In this document: in pieces, positions 16,114-30,371 of the stretch
How the letters are laid out: the number at the start of each line of letters is the position of its first letter
Position numbering within the stretch: position 1 is the stretch's first letter
NCBI GenBank assembly: GCA_041494705.1
Contig: JBGQBI010000006.1
Span: 120,001 to 152,000 of the forward strand
Direction of reading: 5' to 3'
DNA from: Candidatus Methanoperedens sp.
Lineage (GTDB): Archaea > Halobacteriota > Methanosarcinia > Methanosarcinales > Methanoperedenaceae
DNA length: 32,000 bases
Made by a program: the position numbers and the translations under genes
The notes under the pieces: model-generated
The model's input: only the letters and a program-made list of their open reading frames with translations
The model's database searches: none
Told to the model about the DNA's origin: nothing

Positions 16114-16845
16114 TTAAATCCCATAAACCGTTGTCGGGAAATACGGGGATAGCCATCTGATAATGAGTTTATCTATTCCGAATAAAAGCATTATCCCGAC
16201 CATTATCAGCACCAATCCTGACAGTTTTTTAAGAAGCTCCCCGTTCCTTGAAAACCACTGGTACCTGTTCGTAAATTTCTTGCCATAATAAGCTATGGAG
16301 AGCATGGGGAGGCTCATGCCAACCGAATAGACAAAGAGCATCCACGCGCCGTAGCTCATATTGCCCACGGACGCGACATAAGCAAGCACCGCGCCAAGTA
16401 TCGGCCCGACGCAGGGAATCCAGAGGACGCCAAGCGACATCCCGAGGAAAAATCCGCCAAGCAGGCTCCCTTGCGGCAAGGTTGATGAGTATTTGTTCAA
16501 AAAACCAAAATTCTGCCTCAAACCCTGTGTTATGGAGCCAGAGAGTTTTATGAATTCTATGTTTATATCGTCGTCAAAGAGCACAGCGCCCATACCGATG
16601 ATGAAGAGGATTGCAAGGCTTCGCAAAGAATCGGTGAAGCCTGCAAACGTGGCGCCAAACGCTGATACCAGCACCCCCATGGTCGTGAAGGAAAGAGCCA
16701 GTCCTGAAACGATAGCGAGAGGTCGCAGCCTGTGCCCTGCCGAGCCTGAGAAAACCACAGGCACAAGCGGGAGGCAGCACGGCTTCATGATGGTTACTAT
16801 GCCTGCCAGGAAAACGAGAAATATCGAGGGTGCTGATGGTTCCAT
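16114..16845 (-). CDS. ccdA: cytochrome c biogenesis thiol-disulfide transporter CcdA (DsbD family)
   Basis: A 243-aa six-TM ORF with the two hallmark Cys motifs in TM helices (MKPCCLPLVP and WIPCVGPILG). Confidence 0.8.
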   Translation of the reverse strand: MEPSAPSIFLVFLAGIVTIMKPCCLPLVPVVFSGSAGHRLRPLAIVSGLALSFTTMGVLVSAFGATFAGFTDSLRSLAILFIIGMGAVLFDDDINIEFIKLSGSITQGLRQNFGFLNKYSSTLPQGSLLGGFFLGMSLGVLWIPCVGPILGAVLAYVASVGNMSYGAWMLFVYSVGMSLPMLSIAYYGKKFTNRYQWFSRNGELLKKLSGLVLIMVGIMLLFGIDKLIIRWLSPYFPTTVYGI

Positions 16846-17511: not shown

Positions 17512-18327
17512 ATGTTACGTCTATCGGAATATATGAAAGCTAAGGGGTTATTAAGTCTTCTGGCATTTTCTGAAAAAAGAAGAGTTATCCTTTTAATGCT
17601 GCAGGAGGAACCAAAAACACTCAGAGAAATAAACGACTATTTCAAAGCAACATCTCCCGAAATGATTCCTCAAATAAGAAAATTAGAGAAAGGAAATTTA
17701 ATTTCTCAGGAAGGTAAGAAATACGTTTTAACAGAAATTGGAGAAATAGTATCTCAGTCCTTTAATCAACTATCCCAAACTTTAAAAATATTTGAAAGTA
17801 ACATGAGATTCTGGAAAGAACACAGCATTAGTGGAATTCCTCCGGAATTCCAGATGCGACTTTATGAATTGGGAGAGTACAATATTTTAGAGGGTACCCT
17901 GACCGAGATTTTTAAGCCACATGAAGAGTATATTAAAAACCTTTTAAAATCAGAACGGGTAAGGGGAGTCTCCCCAGTACTACATCCCGAATATCCAAAG
18001 GTTGTGACCATGCTGGCAGAAAGAGGCGTAGACATATCAATTGTGGTACCAAGAGAGATTTTCGAAAAATTACAAAAAGAGCATAAAAAAGAACTACAGG
18101 AGTACCTAAGTTATGGAAATGCCTCTATGAGAACAAGCGACGAACAGATTAAAATCTCCTGCACCACATCTGACACATTTCTCTCAATGCGGCTTTTCTT
18201 AAAAGACAATACTTATGACTTCTATAAGAATATCATAAGCTACGAAATATCAGCTTTGAAATTGGGTGAGGATATGTTCAACTATTATGAGAAGCGTTCT
18301 GAAAAAATTGAATTGCAAGATATCTGA
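17512..18327 (+). CDS. winged-HTH transcriptional regulator with DUF1724 domain (FilR1/Msr-type family of Methanosarcinales)
   Basis: A 271-aa ORF with an N-terminal ArsR-like HTH (SEKRRVILLMLQEEPKTLREI) and a long C-terminal domain of the DUF1724 type. The region is about 33% GC by spot count. An alternative ATG lies at 17533. Confidence 0.65.
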   Translation: MLRLSEYMKAKGLLSLLAFSEKRRVILLMLQEEPKTLREINDYFKATSPEMIPQIRKLEKGNLISQEGKKYVLTEIGEIVSQSFNQLSQTLKIFESNMRFWKEHSISGIPPEFQMRLYELGEYNILEGTLTEIFKPHEEYIKNLLKSERVRGVSPVLHPEYPKVVTMLAERGVDISIVVPREIFEKLQKEHKKELQEYLSYGNASMRTSDEQIKISCTTSDTFLSMRLFLKDNTYDFYKNIISYEISALKLGEDMFNYYEKRSEKIELQDI

Positions 18328-19159
18328 ATGCGAGTATGTATGTCCACTCTCCATGAACTATTAAACTTCTAAAAATTGTTTTCTTGCGGTTGGCGTATCG
18401 GGAAATGTAGATTAAACCAGCTACCCAGCTATAAAGTAAAATAATAATATCGAATTTAACTAAACCTGAAAGAACAGAAGCCACAAAGATGAGATGAAAT
18501 GAAGAATTTAAAAATTGAAGGATTATTCTTGTTCTTTGCTCTCCAAAATAAACTGGAATGGTGGTCAATCCTGCTGCTGAATCCCCTTGTATGTCTTTGC
18601 AATCAAATAACACTGTATTTATGAAGCTTTTGAAGAAGAAAAAAACGAAGAACCAAAAGCTTTGCAAATAATTCTCAGTAAAATTATATATAAATACCAT
18701 GATTGTAAAAGCCCATGTAAATGCCACTATGAAGTTTTTAATACCCAATCCCTGTTTAAATCTAATTGAGATTCTACCAATTTTAAATCCTTTTGAATAT
18801 AAAAAACCAATAACAAATGGAAATAGTACTACAAGTGGAGACACTTTTTTTAATACAAGAAGCAAAGATGCGGTAAATAAAAGAACGGATATGATGAAAA
18901 AAACAATATTCTTATCGGCATTTTTTTCTTCAGGTCTATTTATCTCATCTTCTTTTGATTTTAAAGTACGATCTAAAGTATAGACTGAGTATACAACAAA
19001 AGAGAAGGCAAAGCATAGAACTAAATCCGAAGCTTTTCCTGTAAGAAGAAAAGCTATGCATAATCTGAACCAACCAGAAATCCCATTTATAATAGAACTC
19101 TTCAGAACTTTTAGTGTAGCCGCAAACCTCATGCTCAATGAATTAACTATGCATATCAA
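18278..19159 (-). CDS. UbiA-family aromatic/isoprenoid prenyltransferase (substrate unknown)
   Basis: A 293-aa polytopic membrane ORF. It has a first Asp-rich region (LDRTLKSKEDEINRPE) and a second motif (DCKDIQGDSAAGLTTIPV) like UbiA/DGGGP-synthase signatures. Its 3-prime end overlaps the convergent regulator gene by 50 nt. Confidence 0.6.
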   Translation of the reverse strand: MICIVNSLSMRFAATLKVLKSSIINGISGWFRLCIAFLLTGKASDLVLCFAFSFVVYSVYTLDRTLKSKEDEINRPEEKNADKNIVFFIISVLLFTASLLLVLKKVSPLVVLFPFVIGFLYSKGFKIGRISIRFKQGLGIKNFIVAFTWAFTIMVFIYNFTENYLQSFWFFVFFFFKSFINTVLFDCKDIQGDSAAGLTTIPVYFGEQRTRIILQFLNSSFHLIFVASVLSGLVKFDIIILLYSWVAGLIYISRYANRKKTIFRSLIVHGEWTYILAFRYLAIQFFQNASHNS

Positions 19160-19512: not shown

Positions 19513-21141
19513 ATGAGAAAAATTTACTTAGCAGCCGCTATCGTCTTTCTGGCGTTAGTAGGCTTAGCATGGGCGTTTACACCGCCACCGCCGCCGGTAC
19601 CTCAGAACCTTGGTTTATATGATACCGGGATAGACCATCTTCAGACCACTGCAATCGACCAGAGTGCATGTAGAGTCTGCCATCAAACATCAGGAACAAA
19701 TATTAGTGGCGGATACGCCAATACCGTTGGCGGAGTGCCAACAAGGCATCATAGCCTGTTGCCTGGAAATGTGAAAAATCCATTAACCGGTGCTACATTC
19801 GGTTGTACGGATTGTCATCCATCAACTCCAGGAGTAGGCAATGGAATATTGTTAGACAGAAGCTGTGTAGATTGCCATAATGGATCAACTTTCTGGGGCA
19901 ATTCGATTGGCGGACATGTAGGTAATTTCAGCAGACCTCATCATGTCAATACATCATATGCCAGTTCACATATTGGAAATCCTGCTGCAAACAGGACTTG
20001 CAAATTCTGTCACGGCAGTTTCGTGGCCAGCTACAACGATGGACATTATAAACCAGCATATGATACATCGTTCATGATAACGCCATTCGCCAGCTTTAAG
20101 GTTACCGACTTCTCCACACCTGATGGACTTGGCGGCAATAAGGTATGGGGCGGTTGTTATTCATGCCATCTTCCCAATCCTAATGCAACACCAAGTGTAA
20201 TTGACAGCAACCATGACACCCATCACAAGGAAATCTTGGGTCTTGGCAAATTTGGCGGTCAAACCGTATTCCAGAATGCATCCACTCCAGGTGCGGATTG
20301 TTTCTGGTGCCATGTAATTGCACCAGGCAGCACAAGCCCGTTGAGATTCAATATAACCAATCCATTTACTGGCGAGCTCATCGTCAAGGCGATGGAAGTC
20401 AGGAACTCAACTATTGAAGCAACAGATGTGTTTGAACCAGGGACGACTAATATCACCTTTAATGGTACAGGTTGCGAGAAATGCCACGATGTCAAGTCAA
20501 TCCATAACATCCAGTATAACTATGTCCAAAATGGTCCGGCTGGATTTGGCCATATAAACAACAATTCGGATTGTTCTGGCTGTCATGATTCATGGGTTCC
20601 AGCAACGGACTTTGTACCCGGCGCCCTTGTTCCATATGTGGATACGGTGAGCCCGTCAGCAATAGCAGTAAACACTGCTACGACTCTTACCATCACAGGT
20701 TTGAACTTCGTGAATGATCCATATACATCTGTAGTAACCGTAGATGGAACGACATATACGTCGTCATCCATAACAGATACGCAGATAGTAGTTGACATTC
20801 CGGCACTCAGCGCAGGTGCCCATGAACTGCAACTTGTGAAAGGCGGAGATACTCTCAGCAAACTGTATACATTGATTGTTGCACCAAATTCAAAGATAAC
20901 AACCGCGAAGTTGAGCAGTGGAGTAATAACCATAACCGGTTTGAACTTCGGAACTAAGCCTGCAACAAATGCACAGTATTACGTAAGCGTCAATCATGGA
21001 GGAAACCAAATCCGCTCTACCGCAATCAACAGCTGGAGCAGTACTCAGATAAAAGCAACGAATTCTGCTGCTGCAGTAGGCGATTGGGTAACAGTGATGA
21101 CTAAGGATGCTGGCGAAGTAAGGGCAGTAATAACCCGATAG
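19513..21141 (+). CDS. secreted octaheme c-type cytochrome with two C-terminal Ig-like (IPT/TIG-type) domains, paralog 1
   Basis: A 542-aa ORF with an N-terminal signal-like segment and exactly 8 CxxCH motifs (CRVCH, CTDCH, CVDCH, CKFCH, CYSCH, CFWCH, CEKCH, CSGCH). All 16 Cys residues are in these motifs. The heme-free region from about 20626 has ITITGLNF-type beta modules. There is no TM anchor. Confidence 0.9.
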   Translation: MRKIYLAAAIVFLALVGLAWAFTPPPPPVPQNLGLYDTGIDHLQTTAIDQSACRVCHQTSGTNISGGYANTVGGVPTRHHSLLPGNVKNPLTGATFGCTDCHPSTPGVGNGILLDRSCVDCHNGSTFWGNSIGGHVGNFSRPHHVNTSYASSHIGNPAANRTCKFCHGSFVASYNDGHYKPAYDTSFMITPFASFKVTDFSTPDGLGGNKVWGGCYSCHLPNPNATPSVIDSNHDTHHKEILGLGKFGGQTVFQNASTPGADCFWCHVIAPGSTSPLRFNITNPFTGELIVKAMEVRNSTIEATDVFEPGTTNITFNGTGCEKCHDVKSIHNIQYNYVQNGPAGFGHINNNSDCSGCHDSWVPATDFVPGALVPYVDTVSPSAIAVNTATTLTITGLNFVNDPYTSVVTVDGTTYTSSSITDTQIVVDIPALSAGAHELQLVKGGDTLSKLYTLIVAPNSKITTAKLSSGVITITGLNFGTKPATNAQYYVSVNHGGNQIRSTAINSWSSTQIKATNSAAAVGDWVTVMTKDAGEVRAVITR

Positions 21142-21159
21142 ACATAACAAAATGAATGA

Positions 21160-21197
21160 GAGAAGGGATTGAAAAGATCTCTTCTTTCAATTTTTTT
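21160..21197 (+). terminator. putative terminator: conserved 13-nt motif, weak AU-rich stem and T7 run
   Basis: GAGAAGGGATTGA starts 19 nt after the stop codon. ATTGAAAAGA/TCTTTCAAT can pair with one bulge, and TTTTTTT follows at 21191-21197. Confidence 0.35.
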
Positions 21198-21272
21198 AAA
21201 TTACATTCATAATTCATATTAAAGAAACGAAAAAAGTAAGAAAAAGGAATGATATAAGGAGGAGAGGCAAAC

Positions 21273-22757
21273 ATGAAACTAAAAGGAAAAATTCTGATAC
21301 CGATTTTTGCTCTGGCATATTTGGCATTATTAGCAATTGCTGCTATTCCGCCGCCACCGGTTAATCAAAATTTCGGTATTTACGATACGGTAATGATGAA
21401 TTATAATGAGACATTGTGCAGAGGTTGCCATAATTCTACATCCAGCCCCTTGGTGACCGGTGGAGTACCGACAAGGCATCATAACCTTGTTGCAACAGGT
21501 GCTATAAATCCATACACAAATCACCCATTTGTATGCACAGATTGCCATCCATCAACCCCAGGAAACGGAATGGGAATATTATTGGTCAGAAATTGTATGG
21601 AATGTCATAATGGAACAGCTTTCTGGGGCAATTACCAGGGTGCACATGTAAGCAATTTCACCAGGCCTCATCATAACACTACGCAGGCACAGATGAGAAA
21701 TTGCAAATTCTGTCATGGTGCCTCAGTGGATGATTATAATGACGGACATTATATACCTTCTTATCCTCCAAGCGAAGTGACACCCAGCGCATTGTACAAA
21801 GCCAGTAATCTCACATCTATGAGAGTATGGGGAGGTTGTTTAGCCTGCCACGCAGAGAATACATTAGCAACTCCACCGATTTACTATACTCACACAAATG
21901 GTTTTCCACCGGTGGCAGATGGCATGAATAATAGTCACCACAATGAGATAGTTGGAATAACTGGTGGTACGCCGATAGGAGATCAGTGCTTATGGTGCCA
22001 TGTCGATGTAGTAGATGTTCTTGGTATTAGAGGATGCGAAACGTGTCATAGTGTGAGGTCTATTCATAATGTTCAGTTCGACTTTGCAAATACCAGTACA
22101 TTACGTGGATATGGTCACATAGGATCAAATAATCCTTCAGATCCGGCAAACAATTCATGGGATTGCAAGGGGTGTCATGCATGGTATGATGCTGGTGATG
22201 TAAACCCATTCGCAGGAGCTATTGTTCCAGATGTTCAATTGGCAACTCCGGCTGTATTCAATTCCAATACCCCGACAGTTTTGACTCTGACTGGGATCAA
22301 CTTTGTACAGGCAAACTCTACAACCGTTGTAAATGTAGACGACACTACAAATCTAACTCCAACTACTTTGACAAATGGACAGATAACTGTCACAGTGAAT
22401 CTGCCAGCAGGCAACCATTATATCAAGGTTGTAAAAACCGATTCTGTAGAGAATGTACCTAAACCAAGCGATATCAAACCGCTGACAGTCGTAAGCAGAG
22501 TGACAATAACGTCTGCCACGCTGAGGTCTGGAGTCATAACTATCACAGGTTCAGGATTCGGAACTAAACCTGTAACGAATGCCCAGCAATACGTCACCAT
22601 TAAACATGCAGGAACCGTGTACTATTCCGATAGTATCAGCTCCTGGAGCAGTACTCAGATAAAAGCAAAGAAAACCTCAACCCCGGCGGCAGTAAGAGGC
22701 GACATAGTGACGGTGATAACAGCAAATAGCGGCGAAGCTTCGGCTACTATTACATAA
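21273..22757 (+). CDS. secreted octaheme c-type cytochrome with two C-terminal Ig-like (IPT/TIG-type) domains, paralog 2
   Basis: A 494-aa ORF with a GGAGG RBS, a signal-like N-terminus and 8 CxxCH motifs (CRGCH, CTDCH, CMECH, CKFCH, CLACH, CLWCH, CETCH, CKGCH). It is collinear with paralog 1 (GGVPTRHH, CTDCHPSTPG, FWGN, RPHH, YNDGHY, VWGGC). Confidence 0.9.
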   Translation: MKLKGKILIPIFALAYLALLAIAAIPPPPVNQNFGIYDTVMMNYNETLCRGCHNSTSSPLVTGGVPTRHHNLVATGAINPYTNHPFVCTDCHPSTPGNGMGILLVRNCMECHNGTAFWGNYQGAHVSNFTRPHHNTTQAQMRNCKFCHGASVDDYNDGHYIPSYPPSEVTPSALYKASNLTSMRVWGGCLACHAENTLATPPIYYTHTNGFPPVADGMNNSHHNEIVGITGGTPIGDQCLWCHVDVVDVLGIRGCETCHSVRSIHNVQFDFANTSTLRGYGHIGSNNPSDPANNSWDCKGCHAWYDAGDVNPFAGAIVPDVQLATPAVFNSNTPTVLTLTGINFVQANSTTVVNVDDTTNLTPTTLTNGQITVTVNLPAGNHYIKVVKTDSVENVPKPSDIKPLTVVSRVTITSATLRSGVITITGSGFGTKPVTNAQQYVTIKHAGTVYYSDSISSWSSTQIKAKKTSTPAAVRGDIVTVITANSGEASATIT

Positions 22758-22782
22758 GGTGATCAGCAAAACTATGGCTATG

Positions 22783-22827
22783 AGAAGGGATTGATTATTT
22801 AAATTAATTCCTTCTTATATTTTTTTT
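22783..22827 (+). terminator. putative terminator: hairpin plus T8 run
   Basis: AGAAGGGATT (22783-22792) pairs with AATTCCTTCT (22806-22815) with one G-U pair. TTTTTTTT follows at 22820-22827. It contains the same GAGAAGGGATTGA motif seen after paralog 1. Confidence 0.4.
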
Positions 22828-22882
22828 ATTTATTAATTTATAATGGATGTTTGAAAAATACAGATAGGATAGGCGATGAAAA

Positions 22883-24268
22883 ATGAATAAAAGACATATT
22901 ATATTATACTATTTAATGCCGATAACAGTAGGCCTGATACTGGTGGGTTTGGCATTTGCACTACCTCCTCCGGTAGATCAAAGAATGGGGGTCTATGATA
23001 CTTTATTCGGCAATCTGGTTGAGAGTAATTGCAGAGGGTGTCATGCATTGGGTGTACCTGATTCTCATCATAACCTCGTGCGAATAGGAGAATACGGTTG
23101 TACAGATTGTCACCCTGTGCTTCCAAATGGAAGCGGTATTACACTGATCAGGAATTGTCTGCAATGCCACGATAATACCTTTAATGGAATGGCTATTCGA
23201 AGACCGCATCATGAAACACAGGCTGCAACGGTCGGGCATTGTAATGCCTGCCATGGAAGTGTAGTAGATAATTATGACGATGGACACTATACACCAACCT
23301 CTCCGCCGTCCAGTATGGCACCTGATACAAAATTTAAAGTAATCAATCAAACAAGTGGCAGGAAATGGGGTGGTTGTGAGTCGTGCCATGAGGCGAATTC
23401 CACAGCGAGTCCTCCTACAGCCTATAATAATAAGACACATCACAGGTTAGGAAATTTGAGCGGATTCAGGAATAACGATATTACAAAATGTGCTATGTGC
23501 CATGATATGCATAATGCCACATACGGATCTGATTCTATAAGATATTGTGAACGATGTCATGGTTATAGTTCTCTACATAATATTCAGTGGGATATAACCA
23601 ATACAACCCAAATGTCAGGCTACGGTCATCTTGGACCCAATGATTGTCAGGGCTGTCATGCATCGTATGTAGCAGGCAGTTTAGCACCGGGAGCAGATCT
23701 TATTGTACCATCTATTGACCACCTTAGCACAAATCTGGTACTAATAGGTGAGGCAACGGAATTGACCATCGATGGAGATGATTTTGTGACAACAGTTGAT
23801 GGTATTAATCGTTCATCAGTTGTAGCCCTTACAAACGGAGTTATTACAAACGGAACAACTTCAACTAATATTACGATAACTCCGACTAATATAACCGCTT
23901 CTGAGATTGTTGTAACGATACCGCCACTGGATAAAGGGTTGTACGCAATATATGTTATAAAAGATGGAAATGTAGAAAGTAATAAAAGACCATTAGCAGC
24001 CGGGCCGGCAATGATCGTTACCTCTGCGATAATTAATTCTACGACAGTTGCGATCAATGGTTCAGGATTTGGAACATATGATCCTGCATATAATAATTGG
24101 ACAAATGTGACGATCAATATCAATAACGGAACTATATTCCGGTCTGTACAGGTGATAAATTGGTCAGAAACGTCTATTAATGTCACGAGTCCTGATGCAA
24201 TGACCGGGGATATAGCAACAGTCAATAGCATGTATGGTACCAATTCTACACAGGTCACAGGAGGATAG
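22883..24268 (+). CDS. secreted octaheme c-type cytochrome with two C-terminal Ig-like (IPT/TIG-type) domains, paralog 3
   Basis: A 461-aa ORF with 8 CxxCH motifs (CRGCH, CTDCH, CLQCH, CNACH, CESCH, CAMCH, CERCH, CQGCH). It has the most compact heme region, about 245 aa. The stop codon lies 5 nt before the protease ATG. Confidence 0.9.
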   Translation: MNKRHIILYYLMPITVGLILVGLAFALPPPVDQRMGVYDTLFGNLVESNCRGCHALGVPDSHHNLVRIGEYGCTDCHPVLPNGSGITLIRNCLQCHDNTFNGMAIRRPHHETQAATVGHCNACHGSVVDNYDDGHYTPTSPPSSMAPDTKFKVINQTSGRKWGGCESCHEANSTASPPTAYNNKTHHRLGNLSGFRNNDITKCAMCHDMHNATYGSDSIRYCERCHGYSSLHNIQWDITNTTQMSGYGHLGPNDCQGCHASYVAGSLAPGADLIVPSIDHLSTNLVLIGEATELTIDGDDFVTTVDGINRSSVVALTNGVITNGTTSTNITITPTNITASEIVVTIPPLDKGLYAIYVIKDGNVESNKRPLAAGPAMIVTSAIINSTTVAINGSGFGTYDPAYNNWTNVTININNGTIFRSVQVINWSETSINVTSPDAMTGDIATVNSMYGTNSTQVTGG

Positions 24269-24273
24269 ATGAT

Positions 24274-26121
24274 ATGAAAATACCACAAAAAGGTAAAGTG
24301 GTTCTGAATGTGGCTCTCTCAACCTGTGCTATTATCATTATTTTAAGCGGAATGGCACTTGCAGCAGATCGTGACGTTATAATCGGTTATCACAAATCCT
24401 CCGGAACCTCAGAAAAGGAATTGGTCGTCCAAAGTCATGGCGGTAAGATGAAAAAAGAGTTTCATCTGATAAATGCAGTCTCTGCCAGAATGCCTGAAGA
24501 TAAAATCGAAGAGATGAAAAAAGATATTAGAGTTGCATATATAGTAAATGACACTATTTTCAGGATGACAGATGAATATTCCAGTTCCTGGGGAGTCCAG
24601 TCTATCGGAAGTGAGCCTGTACATAACCAGAATATCAATGGAACCGGAGTAAAAATAGCGGTGCTTGATACGGGAATCGATTATAACCATCCGGACTTGG
24701 CTGGAAATTATAAAGGCGGATATGATTTTGTCAACGATGATCCGGATCCATGGGATGACAATTGCCTGTCATTTTTTAGAACATGTCACGGGACACATGT
24801 TTCTGGTATTATAGGTGCCCAACATAATGGCATTGGAGTCGTAGGAGTAGCGCCCGGGTCAAGTTTATATGCAGTCAAAGTATTGGACGGAGGCGGTTTT
24901 GGAACTGCCAGTTTAGTCGTATCCGGTATAGAATGGGCGAAAAACAATGGGATGAATATCATTTCCATGAGCCTGGAAAGTACTGAAAATAATACTGCGG
25001 TACTCGATGCGGTTAATGCCGCATATGATTCTGGTGTATTATTAGTTGCGGCGGGAGGAAATACCGGGGGAGGCCCTGTTTTATATCCTGCAGCATATGA
25101 TTCTGTTATTGCTGTGACTGCTATAGACCAGAATGGTCAGAGAGCAAGTTTCTCTCCAATAGATCAGAAGATTGAAGTTGCCGCTCCCGGGGTAAGAATA
25201 AATTCTACGATACAGGGAGGATATGGTTTTTTGAGCGGAACATCTATGGCGGCTCCACATGTGACAGGTGTAGCAGCTCTCATATTTTCAACAAATTTTC
25301 CTGATGTCAACGGTGATGGATTAAGGGATAATAAAGATGTCAGAGAAATAATCAGGAATACGGCATTCGATGCAGGAATTCCAGGTAAGGATGATATATA
25401 CGGATATGGTATAATAGATGCATCTAAAGCTCTTCTTGGAACTTCGGCATATGAAACTGCTGACTTATCGATTACTAAAGATGACGGTGTATCTAAGATC
25501 ATTGCAGGAGACGGGAATACCTATACTTATATTATAACTGTAAAGAACAACGGTCCTTCGGGTGCCTCAGGTGTACAAGTACTTGATACATGGCCGCCTG
25601 GATTCATCCGGGGAATTGTGACAACATCCCAGGGAACATGCGACATAGCAGTGAACTTTACCTGCGATCTGGGAACTATCCCGAAAGACGGAACGGCAAA
25701 TATCAATGTCAGTTACACAGTACCAAATACATCCATAGGAAACTACACAAATAGAGTTGAAGTAAAATCGACCAGTGCTGACAATAATGCGAGTAACAAT
25801 ATAGCTGAAGATAAAAATATAGTTGATATCATATTAAATCTCATCGTTAAGTCAGATTCGCCAGGTAAAAATGCGAAGCAAGTTTCTCTTTTAAAAGGAA
25901 ACTATTCAGTAACCATAACTAATAGCAACCTAGAAAAAATTAGTATGAATGTTTATGAAAATGGTGTCCTTAGAAAGGATATATCCTCCAAATATGAACT
26001 TAAAAAAAACCAGGTTGTAAATTTTAATATTAATATTGAATCCCCGCAACTTGATTTTATTTTTATCCCATATGGAGATAAAAGATCAACGGGAACAGTA
26101 GCGATCAGGAGGTCATCATGA
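24274..26121 (+). CDS. secreted subtilisin-like serine protease (peptidase S8) with I9-type propeptide and C-terminal DUF11-like and beta-rich domains
   Basis: A 615-aa ORF with a signal-like N-terminus and a propeptide-like region (VIIGYHK...AYIVNDTIF). Catalytic motifs are VAVLDTGID (Asp), CHGTHVSGII (His) and SGTSMAAPHVTG (Ser). A DUF11-like module follows (ADLSITKDDG...TYTYIITVKNNGPSGASGV). A GGAGG RBS is present. Confidence 0.9.
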   Translation: MKIPQKGKVVLNVALSTCAIIIILSGMALAADRDVIIGYHKSSGTSEKELVVQSHGGKMKKEFHLINAVSARMPEDKIEEMKKDIRVAYIVNDTIFRMTDEYSSSWGVQSIGSEPVHNQNINGTGVKIAVLDTGIDYNHPDLAGNYKGGYDFVNDDPDPWDDNCLSFFRTCHGTHVSGIIGAQHNGIGVVGVAPGSSLYAVKVLDGGGFGTASLVVSGIEWAKNNGMNIISMSLESTENNTAVLDAVNAAYDSGVLLVAAGGNTGGGPVLYPAAYDSVIAVTAIDQNGQRASFSPIDQKIEVAAPGVRINSTIQGGYGFLSGTSMAAPHVTGVAALIFSTNFPDVNGDGLRDNKDVREIIRNTAFDAGIPGKDDIYGYGIIDASKALLGTSAYETADLSITKDDGVSKIIAGDGNTYTYIITVKNNGPSGASGVQVLDTWPPGFIRGIVTTSQGTCDIAVNFTCDLGTIPKDGTANINVSYTVPNTSIGNYTNRVEVKSTSADNNASNNIAEDKNIVDIILNLIVKSDSPGKNAKQVSLLKGNYSVTITNSNLEKISMNVYENGVLRKDISSKYELKKNQVVNFNINIESPQLDFIFIPYGDKRSTGTVAIRRSS

Positions 26122-29100
26122 AGGGGAAAAATAATAGAATATATGGAACATTAAACTTGAGCATAATTCTATCTATTTTATTCTGCACAATAATCTTTTC
26201 AGCCAATGCAGCAAGTGCTGCGGATAAAACGTATTACTGGATCCAATCCTCAGGAGCTATAGATTCATCGGGATTTACAGCCAACTGGGGAAATTGTGGG
26301 GCACTGCCAACTTCTTATAGAATTACTACGCTAAGCAGTACAGGGTTTACATGCAACAGCGATCGATTAACAACGACTTCATCCGGAGACCAGTTTTTGG
26401 CAATTTATCCAACAGCATATAGTTCTGATACTCAAATAACAGGCAAAACAGGTGCTACTTTTTATTTATCAAGTCAAAGAAGCGGCTATACTGCGACATA
26501 TCGTTTTGATCTGGGATATGCTCAAGGAGGCACTTTTACATCATTGGGATACGTGACCACGAGTGTATCTTCTTCTAGTGGTCAAAGCTATACCATAGAT
26601 ATGAGTAGCATTATTGGCACTGCTCCTGCGAGTTCATATCCAGCGCTAAAAGTCTCAGTTACAACTTCACGAGGAGGAAGAGTGTATCTTGGAACAAATG
26701 GTGGATCTACAGGCTCAAATAGCGGCCGTTTCTATGTCAATGAGACCGTAACAACCCCAACTCCCACTCCAACTCCCACTCCAACTCCCACTCCAACTCC
26801 CACTCCAACTCCTACGCCAACCCCAACGCCAACTCCTACACCAGCACTAATCGGAAAAATCCTCGTTGCCACAAATAGATATGTCGTACTTGACGACCCC
26901 AATACAGGTTCATTCTCTGGAACCGGGTTCAAGAATCCGTCCAGCAATTGGGGCACTAATAACTTTAATGGCGTCGAGACAAACATAACCATGTGGGCAT
27001 TGGTTATCGATAGCAATGGAATGCCGGTGGCGAATACCAATGTGAATTTCACTTTAATGAACCCTATAGGGACGACGGATTATACGATCATCACATCCAC
27101 GGACAGCAACGGTCTTGTCAATATAACCCGCGACATGAATGCAAAGAACTATTACGGTAACTGGAAGGTCACAGCCAATGCCACGGCGCTGGGTGTTAGT
27201 GATAATACTTCGTTCATCTACAATTGGTGGGGCTGCGGAGGTGGGGCAGGTTGCACTGGCCACTCATCCAAATCTCTCACATCAGGAGCGCCTGTGAATT
27301 CACCGTATGCGACCGGGCATGATGCTGTAGTAGGCTCCAATAATGCTCATTATTCAAATACCAGTGGCTGTATGTTCTGCCACCTTTCCTATAACGGGCA
27401 GGGTTCAACTCCTTCCATGGGGACGGCAGATGTGCATAGAAATCTAACCTGCGATAACCCGAGCTGTCATGGAAGTTTCACGCAGCATCGAACCAATATG
27501 GTTATAGGTTCATGCAGCAACTGCCATAACAGGACTGATATAACAAAGAAGACCACTTTGAACGGCATAGTCTCCAACTATTCCACGACCTCGGATTACC
27601 ATGATAATAATTCCACAATTCCCTGCATCGTCTGCCACGGGCCGATGCACAACATAACAAAACCGGATGAATCCCAGAGGTTTGTGAAGAACAACATCAC
27701 TGAGGACACTCAATGTACTACCTGCCATCAAAATTATAATAAGCACAATACAAGCGTGAACTGCACGCTCTGCCACAGCGACGACGTGCATGTGATACAG
27801 GTGTTCTCGCAGAGCGCGGGATACGTGAACCGCGGAAGCCCTGCTCAAGGCAATTGTACCAACTGCCACCAGAATTCCACGTTCCTTAATGCCCTCAATT
27901 CTTCGCCCAGGGCGGGCAACTATTTTGGGAAACCGGCGCCACAGATACCCGACCCGTTGAAACACAGTGCCAATCTCTCAAACGGCACGATATGGGGTCA
28001 GTTCTGGACCGGAGAGACGGGCTCATGTTATTACTGCCACGGGAATACGAAGCATAACAGCACGGCACTTGGACTTGTGAATAACCTCCTCCTCACAGAC
28101 CCGACAAATGTAAGGAACGGCGCGACCACTGCAACAACCTGGTGCGCTGACTGCCATTACAATGCATCGATAAATACAAATTATAATGGTACCCGGTGGA
28201 ACCCTGCCCCACCCCTGATCACAGTCGATAATACCGGCAAAGCGGGCTGGCAGGATCACAGCGGTTTCCTGGGAGCTGGTTACAAGGACAGCGACTGCCA
28301 GTCATGCCATTCATTGAACGGCACATACTCGTCCACTTCATTGAACCTTTCCCACAGCCTCAATGAAGGCAGGGCAGGGGGTGCGAATTGTATATCCTGT
28401 CACGATGCCGGAGGCACGCTTGGCGGTGGGAAACAGGTTAATTTCACTGCCATGAACGATACTGCTGATATTCACAAGAACCTAAACAGTGGAACCAGCA
28501 CAAGCCTGGCCGCTCAAAATAAGAAATGCTGGGCATGCCACGGCAACGGTAATGAACCCGCAAGCGGTCATCCGTCCAATTACAAGACACCGTACAAGTG
28601 CGTGGACTGCCATGTTTCAGATGCAGGCAACTTTACGCCGACTTCCATACTTACGGTCTCACAGCACTACTGGAACGGTACCAGCATAGATACAGCAAGC
28701 GTGACCAGCTGCTATTCCTGTCACAACAGGACAGAGATGATGGTGGGCAGCTTCGACCCGGATGGTGCGGCCAGCGTATATGGCGGAGCCAATGGCGGCA
28801 ATAACAGTGTCAGCCATTACGGCAAGAAGAGAACCGACATGGCAAGCCTGGATGCCACTACATACTGCAGCTATTGCCACAATACCACTACCAACAACGC
28901 CACATTCTATGTCAGCAATTTCAACAACACGATCATAAACCATACATCAAGAGCGACCACGCCATTGTGCTCGGATTGCCATAACACGGGCAGGATTCAT
29001 AACAACACGTTAGCCAAACCCGTGAGCAACGATACCTTATGTTCGACATGCCACGGGCCGGGTGGTTCTGCAACTACAAACAACAAGGTAGAGCACAAAA

Positions 29101-30371
29101 CTCTGTACTGTACAGAATGCCATGCCAACAATACGATTGGAAGTAAAGCAGGCAGGGATATACATGGCATAAAGTTCCTCCAGAAGGACAATACATTCTC
29201 TCAGAGTAATGTAAATGCTGTAGATTGTACGACATGCCATCAGTCAAATGTTGTAGATGGCTCTCTTGGAATAACTCCAATCAAAGTAAGCAACCCATTG
29301 CATCATTCGGATGATCTGCTCAATGGATCGAAATGGGGCAGCTACTGGACGAATCAGACCGGTTCTTGTCTATATTGCCATAATGACACGAAACATAGTT
29401 CGACACCTTTAGGCAGACCATTGATATGGAATCCATCATATGTGCTCAATTCTACCATTAGCAGTGGAACTAATTGTGCAGATTGTCACTATCAAGGGGA
29501 TAGCAATTATAGTCAGATGAGTTCTGAATTTACAGGTGTCGGGCTTGGTTTATCTCCAGAGATCACCAACGGTAGCTGGAATGGCAAACCTGGCTACTAC
29601 AATCATACCTTGAGTGATTATACAGATTCTCAATGTAAGTCATGCCACGACAAATCCGGAAGTACGACTGTTGGTCAACTGATGCACAATAACTCTGTAG
29701 GGTCAGCAGGAGGTCCTGATTGTAAGGCATGTCATGATGCGGGAGGTACTGCACCCAAACTTGTCAATTTCAGCACTGCAAATAATTCAGCACATAAGAA
29801 TTTAAATAGTGGAGCATCTTCGACTGTAAATGCTGAGAATAAGAAATGCTGGGCATGTCATGGAGATGGTACTCAACCTGGAAGCGGGCATCCTTCTGCA
29901 TATATGACACCGGATCCTTGTGAGAATTGCCATACAGGTACAGGAGGATATAATGCACCGCTGGTGAAAGAACATATCCAGAATGGAAGTGATGTACAGA
30001 CCGCCGCAGCCTGTAATCTGTGTCACGACAACAATGGAATGTCTATAGGGAGTGGAGGTATCGGTACAATAACACATTACATCAAAAATGTGACTGATAC
30101 AATGACAACTCCATATGGACATTTTGGTACGATTGATACTACCAATTGTCTCATTTGCCACAATGACCAATATACAGGAAATGCATCATGGGGCTCACCA
30201 GTAAATATTACGACAAGTTTAAAGAGAAAACATACTGAAACGACAAATGTACAATGTGACGGCTGTCATAAAGACGATACCATTAGTACGCTGGCTAATG
30301 TTGATTTCCATAATGCATCACTTAGTAATTTTGGAGGCAATTGTCTGGATTGTCATGCTAAGGCAGAATAA
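26118..30371 (+). CDS. giant secreted multiheme c-type cytochrome (28 CxxCH + 1 CX4CH)
   Basis: A 1417-aa ORF whose ATG overlaps the protease stop (ATGA) and is preceded by GGAGG. Domain order is a signal-like N-terminus, a roughly 200-aa heme-free Ser/Thr-rich region, a (TP)n linker, an Ig-like beta domain, then the heme region. Heme motifs were counted by hand. There is no C-terminal TM segment. Confidence 0.92.
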   Translation: MKGKNNRIYGTLNLSIILSILFCTIIFSANAASAADKTYYWIQSSGAIDSSGFTANWGNCGALPTSYRITTLSSTGFTCNSDRLTTTSSGDQFLAIYPTAYSSDTQITGKTGATFYLSSQRSGYTATYRFDLGYAQGGTFTSLGYVTTSVSSSSGQSYTIDMSSIIGTAPASSYPALKVSVTTSRGGRVYLGTNGGSTGSNSGRFYVNETVTTPTPTPTPTPTPTPTPTPTPTPTPTPTPTPALIGKILVATNRYVVLDDPNTGSFSGTGFKNPSSNWGTNNFNGVETNITMWALVIDSNGMPVANTNVNFTLMNPIGTTDYTIITSTDSNGLVNITRDMNAKNYYGNWKVTANATALGVSDNTSFIYNWWGCGGGAGCTGHSSKSLTSGAPVNSPYATGHDAVVGSNNAHYSNTSGCMFCHLSYNGQGSTPSMGTADVHRNLTCDNPSCHGSFTQHRTNMVIGSCSNCHNRTDITKKTTLNGIVSNYSTTSDYHDNNSTIPCIVCHGPMHNITKPDESQRFVKNNITEDTQCTTCHQNYNKHNTSVNCTLCHSDDVHVIQVFSQSAGYVNRGSPAQGNCTNCHQNSTFLNALNSSPRAGNYFGKPAPQIPDPLKHSANLSNGTIWGQFWTGETGSCYYCHGNTKHNSTALGLVNNLLLTDPTNVRNGATTATTWCADCHYNASINTNYNGTRWNPAPPLITVDNTGKAGWQDHSGFLGAGYKDSDCQSCHSLNGTYSSTSLNLSHSLNEGRAGGANCISCHDAGGTLGGGKQVNFTAMNDTADIHKNLNSGTSTSLAAQNKKCWACHGNGNEPASGHPSNYKTPYKCVDCHVSDAGNFTPTSILTVSQHYWNGTSIDTASVTSCYSCHNRTEMMVGSFDPDGAASVYGGANGGNNSVSHYGKKRTDMASLDATTYCSYCHNTTTNNATFYVSNFNNTIINHTSRATTPLCSDCHNTGRIHNNTLAKPVSNDTLCSTCHGPGGSATTNNKVEHKTLYCTECHANNTIGSKAGRDIHGIKFLQKDNTFSQSNVNAVDCTTCHQSNVVDGSLGITPIKVSNPLHHSDDLLNGSKWGSYWTNQTGSCLYCHNDTKHSSTPLGRPLIWNPSYVLNSTISSGTNCADCHYQGDSNYSQMSSEFTGVGLGLSPEITNGSWNGKPGYYNHTLSDYTDSQCKSCHDKSGSTTVGQLMHNNSVGSAGGPDCKACHDAGGTAPKLVNFSTANNSAHKNLNSGASSTVNAENKKCWACHGDGTQPGSGHPSAYMTPDPCENCHTGTGGYNAPLVKEHIQNGSDVQTAAACNLCHDNNGMSIGSGGIGTITHYIKNVTDTMTTPYGHFGTIDTTNCLICHNDQYTGNASWGSPVNITTSLKRKHTETTNVQCDGCHKDDTISTLANVDFHNASLSNFGGNCLDCHAKAE
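26751..26843 (+). repeat. in-frame tandem repeat encoding a (Thr-Pro)n linker
   Basis: The 12-nt unit CCAACTCCCACT is repeated four times perfectly (26757-26804), followed by degenerate units. The translation is TTPTPTPTPTPTPTPTPTPTPTPTPTPTPTP. Confidence 0.95.

Follow-up and report, generated by a model that had tools for sequence, protein, structure and literature searches.

A candidate OmcZ/OzpA-type nanowire module in Candidatus Methanoperedens, comprising one canonical OmcZ orthologue with its subtilisin and two ancient, divergent paralogues

The window analysed here, a 32,000-nucleotide (nt) stretch of a Candidatus Methanoperedens sp. genome (GCA_041494705.1, contig JBGQBI010000006.1) to whose positions all coordinates refer, carries five genes in a row on the + strand. 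Three tandem genes encode octaheme cytochrome precursors, termed P1 (19513-21141, 542 amino acids (aa)), P2 (21273-22757, 494 aa) and P3 (22883-24268, 461 aa). Directly 3' of P3 lies the gene for a secreted subtilisin, termed S8 (24274-26121, 615 aa), followed by that for a giant multiheme cytochrome (26118-30371, 1417 aa), in whose open reading frame (ORF) 28 CxxCH motifs and one CX4CH motif were counted. An earlier note on this DNA had likened the octaheme genes and the adjoining protease gene to the system of Geobacter sulfurreducens in which the nanowire cytochrome OmcZ (GSU2076) is matured by the subtilisin OzpA (GSU2075), while asserting no sequence homology between the archaeal proteins and OmcZ. 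The comparisons reported below identify P1, P2 and P3 as full-length homologues of OmcZ, with P3 as its canonical orthologue, and S8 as an intact pro-subtilisin of the kind found after OmcZ homologues in both archaea and bacteria. Minus-strand ORFs inside these genes (e.g., 23656-24288) were taken as frame shadows of the + strand genes.

Motif counts in the three ORFs bear out the earlier reading of exactly eight CxxCH motifs per protein. All 16 cysteines of each protein lie within these motifs, which span residues 53-358 in P1, 49-302 in P2 and 50-259 in P3; by our own back-of-envelope estimate, ~0.001 such motifs would be expected by chance in a protein of this size. Searches of the PDB with phmmer recover full-length G. 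sulfurreducens OmcZ (8d9m) with all three proteins: P3 with an E-value of 8.8e-61 over residues 14-456, P2 with 8.4e-46 over residues 18-486, and P1 with 4.5e-37. The processed OmcZ subunit (7lq5) is matched with E-values of 4e-33, 1e-27 and 4e-15 by P3, P2 and P1, respectively. These alignments cover both the heme domain and the tail, including both immunoglobulin (Ig)-like domains, and take in a PPPV(N/D)Q motif near the signal peptide, all the heme motifs and the short linker that follows them. Beyond OmcZ, the same searches returned no significant PDB match for P1, P2 or P3. The disclaimer of homology in the earlier note was thus too cautious, and since the resemblance is one of homology rather than analogy, the OmcZ/OzpA logic is more strongly supported than that note had claimed, a conclusion to which the conserved synteny described below adds. 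Two decaheme families were considered and rejected: the MtrC/OmcA-type model PF22113 scores 27.6 and 22.5 bits (cut-off 30), and the DmsE-type model TIGR03508 scores 21 bits (cut-off 192).

The conservation pattern of the heme domain points in the same direction. The eight CxxCH motifs and nine further histidines are invariant in a set of 106 archaeal homologues and also in a set of 39 archaeal and bacterial homologues drawn from genome loci. In P3 the non-motif histidines are H62, H63, H109, H110, H135, H186, H187, H232 and H249, among which H62/H63, H109/H110 and H186/H187 form adjacent pairs. All hemes of OmcZ have bis-His ligation (PMC9473688), and nine such histidines suffice in number for the eight distal ligands that ligation of this kind would need, although the structural model of the heme domain is too poor to assign individual ligands. 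The closest relatives of P3 are other 'Ca. Methanoperedens' proteins (96% identity), followed by those of the anaerobic methanotrophic archaea (ANME) of groups 2a and 2c.

The N-terminus of P3 is also of the OmcZ type. A Sec-type signal peptide can be read from the sequence at residues 1-26 (22883-22960), comprising MNKRH, a hydrophobic core and AFA, and it ends just before an (L)PPPV N-terminus in which P28-P30 and Q33 are conserved. In the alignment to P3 the homologous PPPPVNQ is the start of mature Geobacter OmcZ, which begins at P27 (PMC9473688). The octaheme domain, which is the predicted processed core, would then occupy residues 27-268 (22961-23686), as delimited by the eight motifs and the invariant histidines. 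P1 has a signal peptide at approximately residues 1-21 and an enlarged heme domain reaching to about residue 368. Public annotation of an identical locus (L034, GCA_041480985.1) begins P3 at Met12, giving a protein of 450 aa, and an exact-sequence look-up of the 461-aa form found no match. A start at the upstream ATG (22883) is more plausible because it restores the charged n-region (MNKRH) and is supported by conservation in homologues.

Downstream of the hemes, each protein ends in a tail of 170-190 residues that lacks heme motifs and belongs to the IPT/TIG group by Pfam, with TIG detected at an E-value of 1e-14 in P1 and slightly below the curated cut-off in P2 and P3. AlphaFold was run twice for P3, with 15 and then 106 aligned sequences; within the P3 tail (residues 269-461; 23687-24265) it predicts two beta-sandwiches at residues 277-460 with a predicted local distance difference test (pLDDT) score mostly of 80-95, and Foldseek matches this tail to the tandem IPT/Ig domains of Met and plexin. 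The heme-free tail of two Ig-like modules proposed in the earlier note is thereby confirmed. Geobacter OmcZ is cut after FGNSS, at S284 (PMC9473688), and alignment to this site was also used to set the cleavage site in a preprint on Borgs (bioRxiv 10.1101/2023.08.01.549754). In the HMMER alignment of P3 to 8d9m the counterpart of that site falls after residue 268, in …YVAGSLA/PGADLIVP…, within the linker (23672-23710) that joins heme 8 to the first Ig domain. The equivalent sites lie after residue 368 in P1 and residue 311 in P2, and the corresponding tail starts at 20617 (P1), 22206 (P2) and 23687 (P3) are within ~15 nt of those given in the earlier note (20626, 22221 and 23699). The tails of P1 and P2 accordingly span 20617-21138 and 22206-22754. 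Across the family, the stretch linking heme 8 to the invariant proline at the start of the first Ig domain is a short one in which small residues abound. If P3 were cut there, a holo-precursor of 51.3 kDa (without its signal peptide) would yield an octaheme core of 31.3 kDa and a tail of 20 kDa. Geobacter OmcZ, whose precursor likewise carries two Ig-like domains, goes from 50 kDa to 30 kDa on removal of a tail that is absent from the filament (PMC9473688). The predicted cores of P1 and P2 are larger, at ~42 kDa and ~36 kDa.

The S8 gene starts 5 nt after the stop codon of P3. Pfam recognizes in its product an Inhibitor_I9 propeptide (residues 47-97; 24412-24564; E-value 7e-5), a Peptidase_S8 catalytic domain (residues 123-379; 24640-25410; E-value 6e-61) and a DUF11 domain (residues 397-512; 25462-25809), the last being followed by a C-terminal domain of ~100 aa; a signal peptide precedes them. 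The catalytic residues D132, H172 and S324 and the oxyanion Asn263 stand in canonical subtilisin motifs, and pro-subtilisin E (3whi) aligns to residues 32-363 with an E-value of 5e-66. The description of this gene in the earlier note, as encoding a secreted S8 protease with an I9-like propeptide and an intact triad, therefore stands. S8 is 77% identical to the S8 protein of METP1, a published OzpA homologue, and its catalytic domain is 52-54% identical to those of the S8 proteins encoded beside OmcZ genes in Desulfuromonadales and Myxococcota; the 45% identity of this domain to subtilisin BPN' serves only as a rough calibration. The DUF11 and C-terminal domains of the Methanoperedens S8 are missing from shorter relatives. 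The homologous Geobacter protease is reported to process OmcZ (PMC9473688).

The association of the two genes is conserved well beyond the window. For this comparison 33 homologue loci were fetched from species-representative genomes and their ORFs were compared by BLAST with the window proteins, adjacency being scored only where enough downstream sequence was available, i.e., at 19 archaeal and five bacterial loci; an uncultured Geobacter contig ends too early and was left out of the count. An S8 homologue follows the OmcZ homologue at all 19 of the archaeal loci, which come from Methanoperedens, ANME-2c (Methanogaster) and other Methanosarcinales, mostly within ~125 nt, with an 11-heme protein lying between the two genes at one of them. 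Among the bacteria the same order occurs at three of the five loci (Desulfuromonadaceae, Trichloromonas and Myxococcota). The adjacency that the earlier note had proposed to look for in relatives is thus present in all the archaeal and most of the bacterial loci that could be assessed. At the two remaining bacterial loci, both of Planctomycetota (L030 and L031), no S8 gene occurs within 9-10 kb downstream, and this appears to be a lineage in which the link to the protease is broken. These two loci each carry two tandem OmcZ-like octaheme genes, encoding proteins of ~480-500 aa and 660-700 aa. Further, a small ORF with four heme motifs directly follows the OmcZ homologue on the uncultured Geobacter contig (L021, 11363-12097) and in a Myxococcota metagenome-assembled genome (MAG; L026, 3859-4674), in the latter case being placed between the OmcZ homologue and S8. 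Transfer between bacteria and archaea probably accounts for the presence of the module in Methanoperedens.

We consider it likely that the locus represents the Methanoperedens (ANME-2d) version of the OmcZ/OzpA module, in which tail-cleaved octaheme cores would assemble into a conductive filament. From homology, synteny and predicted sizes we infer that tail cleavage and core polymerization would take place in this archaeon too. Each precursor would be exported by Sec and loaded outside the membrane with eight bis-His c-type hemes, with the C-terminal IPT/TIG pair holding it back from assembly by autoinhibition. The subtilisin, once freed of its own I9 propeptide, would cut within the short linker that follows heme 8, at about residue 268 in P3, and so release a ~31 kDa octaheme core able to polymerize into the conductive filament. 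This filament would take electrons from methane oxidation beyond the S-layer, with the co-encoded giant multiheme cytochrome probably acting as the cell-surface conduit.

Several points weigh against this proposal. The Geobacter process runs in a periplasm and an outer membrane, both of which archaea lack. According to a 2026 review, filaments have not yet been visualized in Methanoperedenaceae. At the structural level, residues 27-270 of P3 are modeled with pLDDT mostly below 60 in both AlphaFold runs. Foldseek searches of the PDB with the P3 model returned only Ig/IPT matches to the tail and did not retrieve 7lq5, a result that is uninformative on the heme fold; fold servers find nothing for OmcZ itself owing to its low secondary-structure content (PMC9473688). 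Heme 2 is bound by a plain CxxCH in the window proteins as opposed to the CX14CH of G. sulfurreducens, and OmcZ variants without the CXnCH motif have already been noted in the Borg preprint. The prolyl isomerase of the published cluster has no counterpart here: no isomerase domain was found in window ORFs of at least 120 aa, nor in the called genes for 10 kb on either side of the identical locus L034. Finally, the insertions in the heme domains of P1 and P2 described next could prevent packing of the OmcZ type in these two proteins.

The three octaheme genes are not equivalent. In a rough neighbor-joining tree, P3 groups with the Methanoperedens copies that directly precede S8, the whole group being sister to the ANME-2a/2c proteins, whereas P1 and P2 form a separate clade confined to Methanoperedenaceae. 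P1 and P2 are only 38-48% identical to P3 and to one another, and their heme domains contain insertions, including one of ~45 aa between hemes 6 and 7 in P1. The array is accordingly best read from these comparisons as one canonical orthologue with two ancient, divergent paralogues and not as a recent triplication. Of the earlier description of the system as being present in triplicate, the three octaheme genes stand, but the implied uniformity does not, as only P3 is canonical and apparently co-transcribed with the protease. The spacers support the distinction. P1 is followed by a terminator-like hairpin with a T-run (21157-21199, + strand), a 14-pair stem and then ATTTTTTTAA, and P2 by another (22779-22829, + strand) with an 18-pair stem and then TTTTTTTTAT. 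The arm GAGAAGGGATTGA is common to both hairpins, and AT-rich sequence then follows. These spacers look like duplicated terminator and promoter units, in which case P1 and P2 would be monocistronic. Arrays of two to four OmcZ-like genes occur in further Methanoperedens genomes (L002-L005), and orthologues of P1 (54% identity) and P2 (74%) were found in MAG bin_184_1 (L025). There, on JAWOKW010000405.1 (7829-16017), they stand with a gene for an 800-aa 11-heme protein and one for a second S8 paralogue, whose catalytic domain is 60% identical to that of the window S8. A P3-type cluster (L002) stands apart from it in this MAG, and because the MAG keeps the P1/P2-type and P3-type clusters apart, the five-gene array of the window may be a merger of two clusters.

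This divergence gives some substance to the alternative that P3 alone is a nanowire subunit, with P1 and P2 having diverged into soluble or loosely bound carriers, or into subunits for other acceptors, that are not processed by the window S8. The separate clade and low identities of P1 and P2, their heme-domain insertions, their own terminator-like sites and different linker residues, and the presence of their bin_184_1 orthologues beside another S8 paralogue all agree with it, as do the isoelectric points (pI) of the tails, which are 7.3 in P1 and 9.3 in P2 as against 4.1 in P3. On the other side, P1 and P2 retain all the heme motifs and the nine additional histidines, together with a linker of conserved length and a tail of two domains, which is what would be expected if the same maturation logic applied to them. 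We regard this alternative as a possibility to be taken seriously, albeit one that we would hold to be somewhat less probable than its converse. P1 and P2 may instead be alternative or additional filament subunits with larger cores. A bolder and rather doubtful extension is that one and the same protease might mature P1 and P2 as well as P3, with P1 and P2 forming distinct filaments or co-polymerizing with P3. If true, their filaments would constitute a nanowire set tuned to different acceptors or potentials, an elaboration not described for Geobacter.

The nature of the tails bears on a second alternative, also raised in the earlier note, under which the three proteins remain full-length surface cytochromes that form no filament, their IPT/TIG tails serving in adhesion or S-layer binding so as to keep the octaheme domains on the cell surface, or else binding minerals or partner cells, and S8 being a general exoprotease or acting on other substrates. 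Proteins of the cell surface and the S-layer do commonly contain IPT/TIG and Ig-like domains, two S-layer proteins (SbsC and Sap) are among the Foldseek matches of the P3 tail, and no filaments have been seen in this family, as said above. N-glycosylation sequons are unevenly distributed across the tails, with 12 in the 193 aa of P3, none in P1 and two in P2; a density such as that of P3 is typical of exposed archaeal surface domains. Together with the differing pI values, this leaves room for the view that the tails of P1-P3 may meet different environments or partners. However, the tail is homologous to that of Geobacter OmcZ, which is cleaved off and absent from the filament. Further, no C-terminal transmembrane segment, hydrophobic anchor or sorting signal was found in the three tails, and no anchor family was found in NCBIfam, which argues against simple tethering. 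The adjacency of the protease is also shared by archaea and bacteria whose cell envelopes differ greatly, a pattern that a generic exoprotease does not explain. Permanent display of uncleaved cytochromes therefore seems to us unlikely.

The gene order 3' of P3 could suggest yet another substrate for the protease. The P3-S8 gap is +5 nt and the S8-giant cytochrome gap -4 nt, with the start codon of the latter overlapping the stop codon of S8 and no terminator-like site in between; P3, S8 and the giant cytochrome thus look like one operon, as judged from the spacing of the genes. Besides its heme motifs, the giant cytochrome comprises a non-heme domain at the N-terminus, a (TP)15 linker (26754-26843) and an Ig-like domain, and it contains an internal duplication of a ~240-aa module (residues ~635-875 versus ~1082-1310; 42% identity, E-value 3e-54). 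The idea that this cytochrome, or other surface proteins, is the main substrate of S8, with the OmcZ adjacency reflecting only shared regulation in an operon for extracellular electron transfer, draws on the 4-nt overlap, on the large multiheme cytochromes, orthologous to that of the window, which follow S8 in L001, L002, L003 and L005, and on the extra DUF11 and C-terminal domains of the Methanoperedens S8, but it is improbable given that in ANME-2a/2c and bacteria S8 follows the OmcZ homologue without an adjoining giant cytochrome (heme motifs are absent from the next ORF in L016, and a giant cytochrome is likewise missing in L022 and L023), so that OmcZ is the constant partner, and given the reported action of the Geobacter protease on OmcZ.

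Returning to the OmcZ/OzpA reading, comparison with the Geobacter system shows agreement in the eight hemes, the histidine pairs, the PPPV N-terminus after the signal peptide, the short linker, the two Ig-like domains, the subtilisin gene directly downstream, the ~50 kDa precursor and the ~30 kDa core, at identities of ~33-35% overall and ~45% in the heme domain. Unlike in Geobacter, the host is an archaeon without an outer membrane, heme 2 has a CxxCH motif, no prolyl isomerase gene is adjacent, the protease is extended by DUF11 and C-terminal domains, its gene is translationally coupled to that of a 29-heme cytochrome downstream, and two divergent paralogues lie upstream. OmcS, OmcE and the tetraheme filaments of Pyrobaculum calidifontis and Archaeoglobus veneficus are alike in their proposed function, an extracellular polymer of stacked hemes, but differ in heme number, and none of their chains is among the PDB matches of P3 or P1 listed up to an E-value of 10. 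We know of no protease-removed tail in any of these other filament proteins. The OmcZ/OzpA system was already known, also from Gu et al. 2023 as quoted in other papers.

For ANME and Methanoperedens, clusters of this type have already been published (Chadwick et al. 2022; Ouboter et al. 2024; bioRxiv 10.1101/2023.08.01.549754). Very close OmcZ homologues were described in ANME-2 with a proposal of interdomain transfer (Chadwick et al. 2022, PMC9012536), omcZ-ozpA operons were stated to be widespread in Bacteria and Archaea (Wang et al. 2022), and clusters of OmcZ, peptidase and isomerase genes were analysed in Methanoperedens and Borgs in the above-mentioned preprint. Among the closest described cases is that of METP1, in which Metp_02468 is an OmcZ homologue and Metp_02469 an OzpA homologue, accompanied by 37- and 15-heme cytochromes, and in which growth on electrodes raises the expression of the cluster more than 3.5 log2-fold (Ouboter et al. 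2024, PMC10874420). Our locus from the METP1 assembly (L001) reproduces this cluster, with genes for an OmcZ homologue 78% identical to P3, an S8 protein and two cytochromes, one having 36 CxxCH motifs and the other at least 12 hemes. It shares with the window the order OmcZ, S8, giant multiheme cytochrome, and it differs in having 36 as against 28 CxxCH motifs in the giant cytochrome and no P1/P2-type paralogue in the available 761 bp 5' of the OmcZ gene. The OmcZ homologues of ANME-2a/2b/2c, Borgs and Borg-host Methanoperedens belong to the same family, being 41-47% identical to P3 and having S8 downstream, whereas the precursors of Black Borgs reportedly carry four beta-rich domains at the C-terminus (bioRxiv 10.1101/2023.08.01.549754) as against two in the window proteins.

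The wider neighborhood contains genes for PheRS beta, the flavoprotein and iron-sulfur subunits of a succinate dehydrogenase/fumarate reductase, BioY and CcdA, and has a GC content of ~43%. These housekeeping neighbors and the GC content place the locus on the host chromosome and rule out a Borg origin. The S8 protein is 100% identical to one encoded on JBGPBB010000005.1 (L034), where the gene order is the same; there, ~1.8 kb separate the giant cytochrome gene from an IS240-family DDE transposase gene (17867-19036 of L034) downstream of it. Upstream of the array in the window are genes for a CcdA/DsbD-type cytochrome c biogenesis membrane protein (16114-16845, - strand), a FilR1-family transcription regulator (17512-18327, + strand) and a UbiA prenyltransferase (18278-19159, - strand). 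Homologues of FilR1, UbiA, CcdA and radical SAM proteins were sought beside the OmcZ genes of the other 33 loci and none was found; any link of the upstream genes to the array may be specific to the genome of the window.

Conceptually, the locus adds nothing new to the OmcZ/OzpA clusters already published for ANME and Methanoperedens. It is, however, a clean and complete example of them, combining an apparent operon of P3, protease and giant cytochrome with two older paralogues. Filaments of the OmcZ type are the leading molecular candidate for the export of electrons by methane-oxidizing archaea to minerals, electrodes and partner bacteria, a process that limits the release of methane from sediments.

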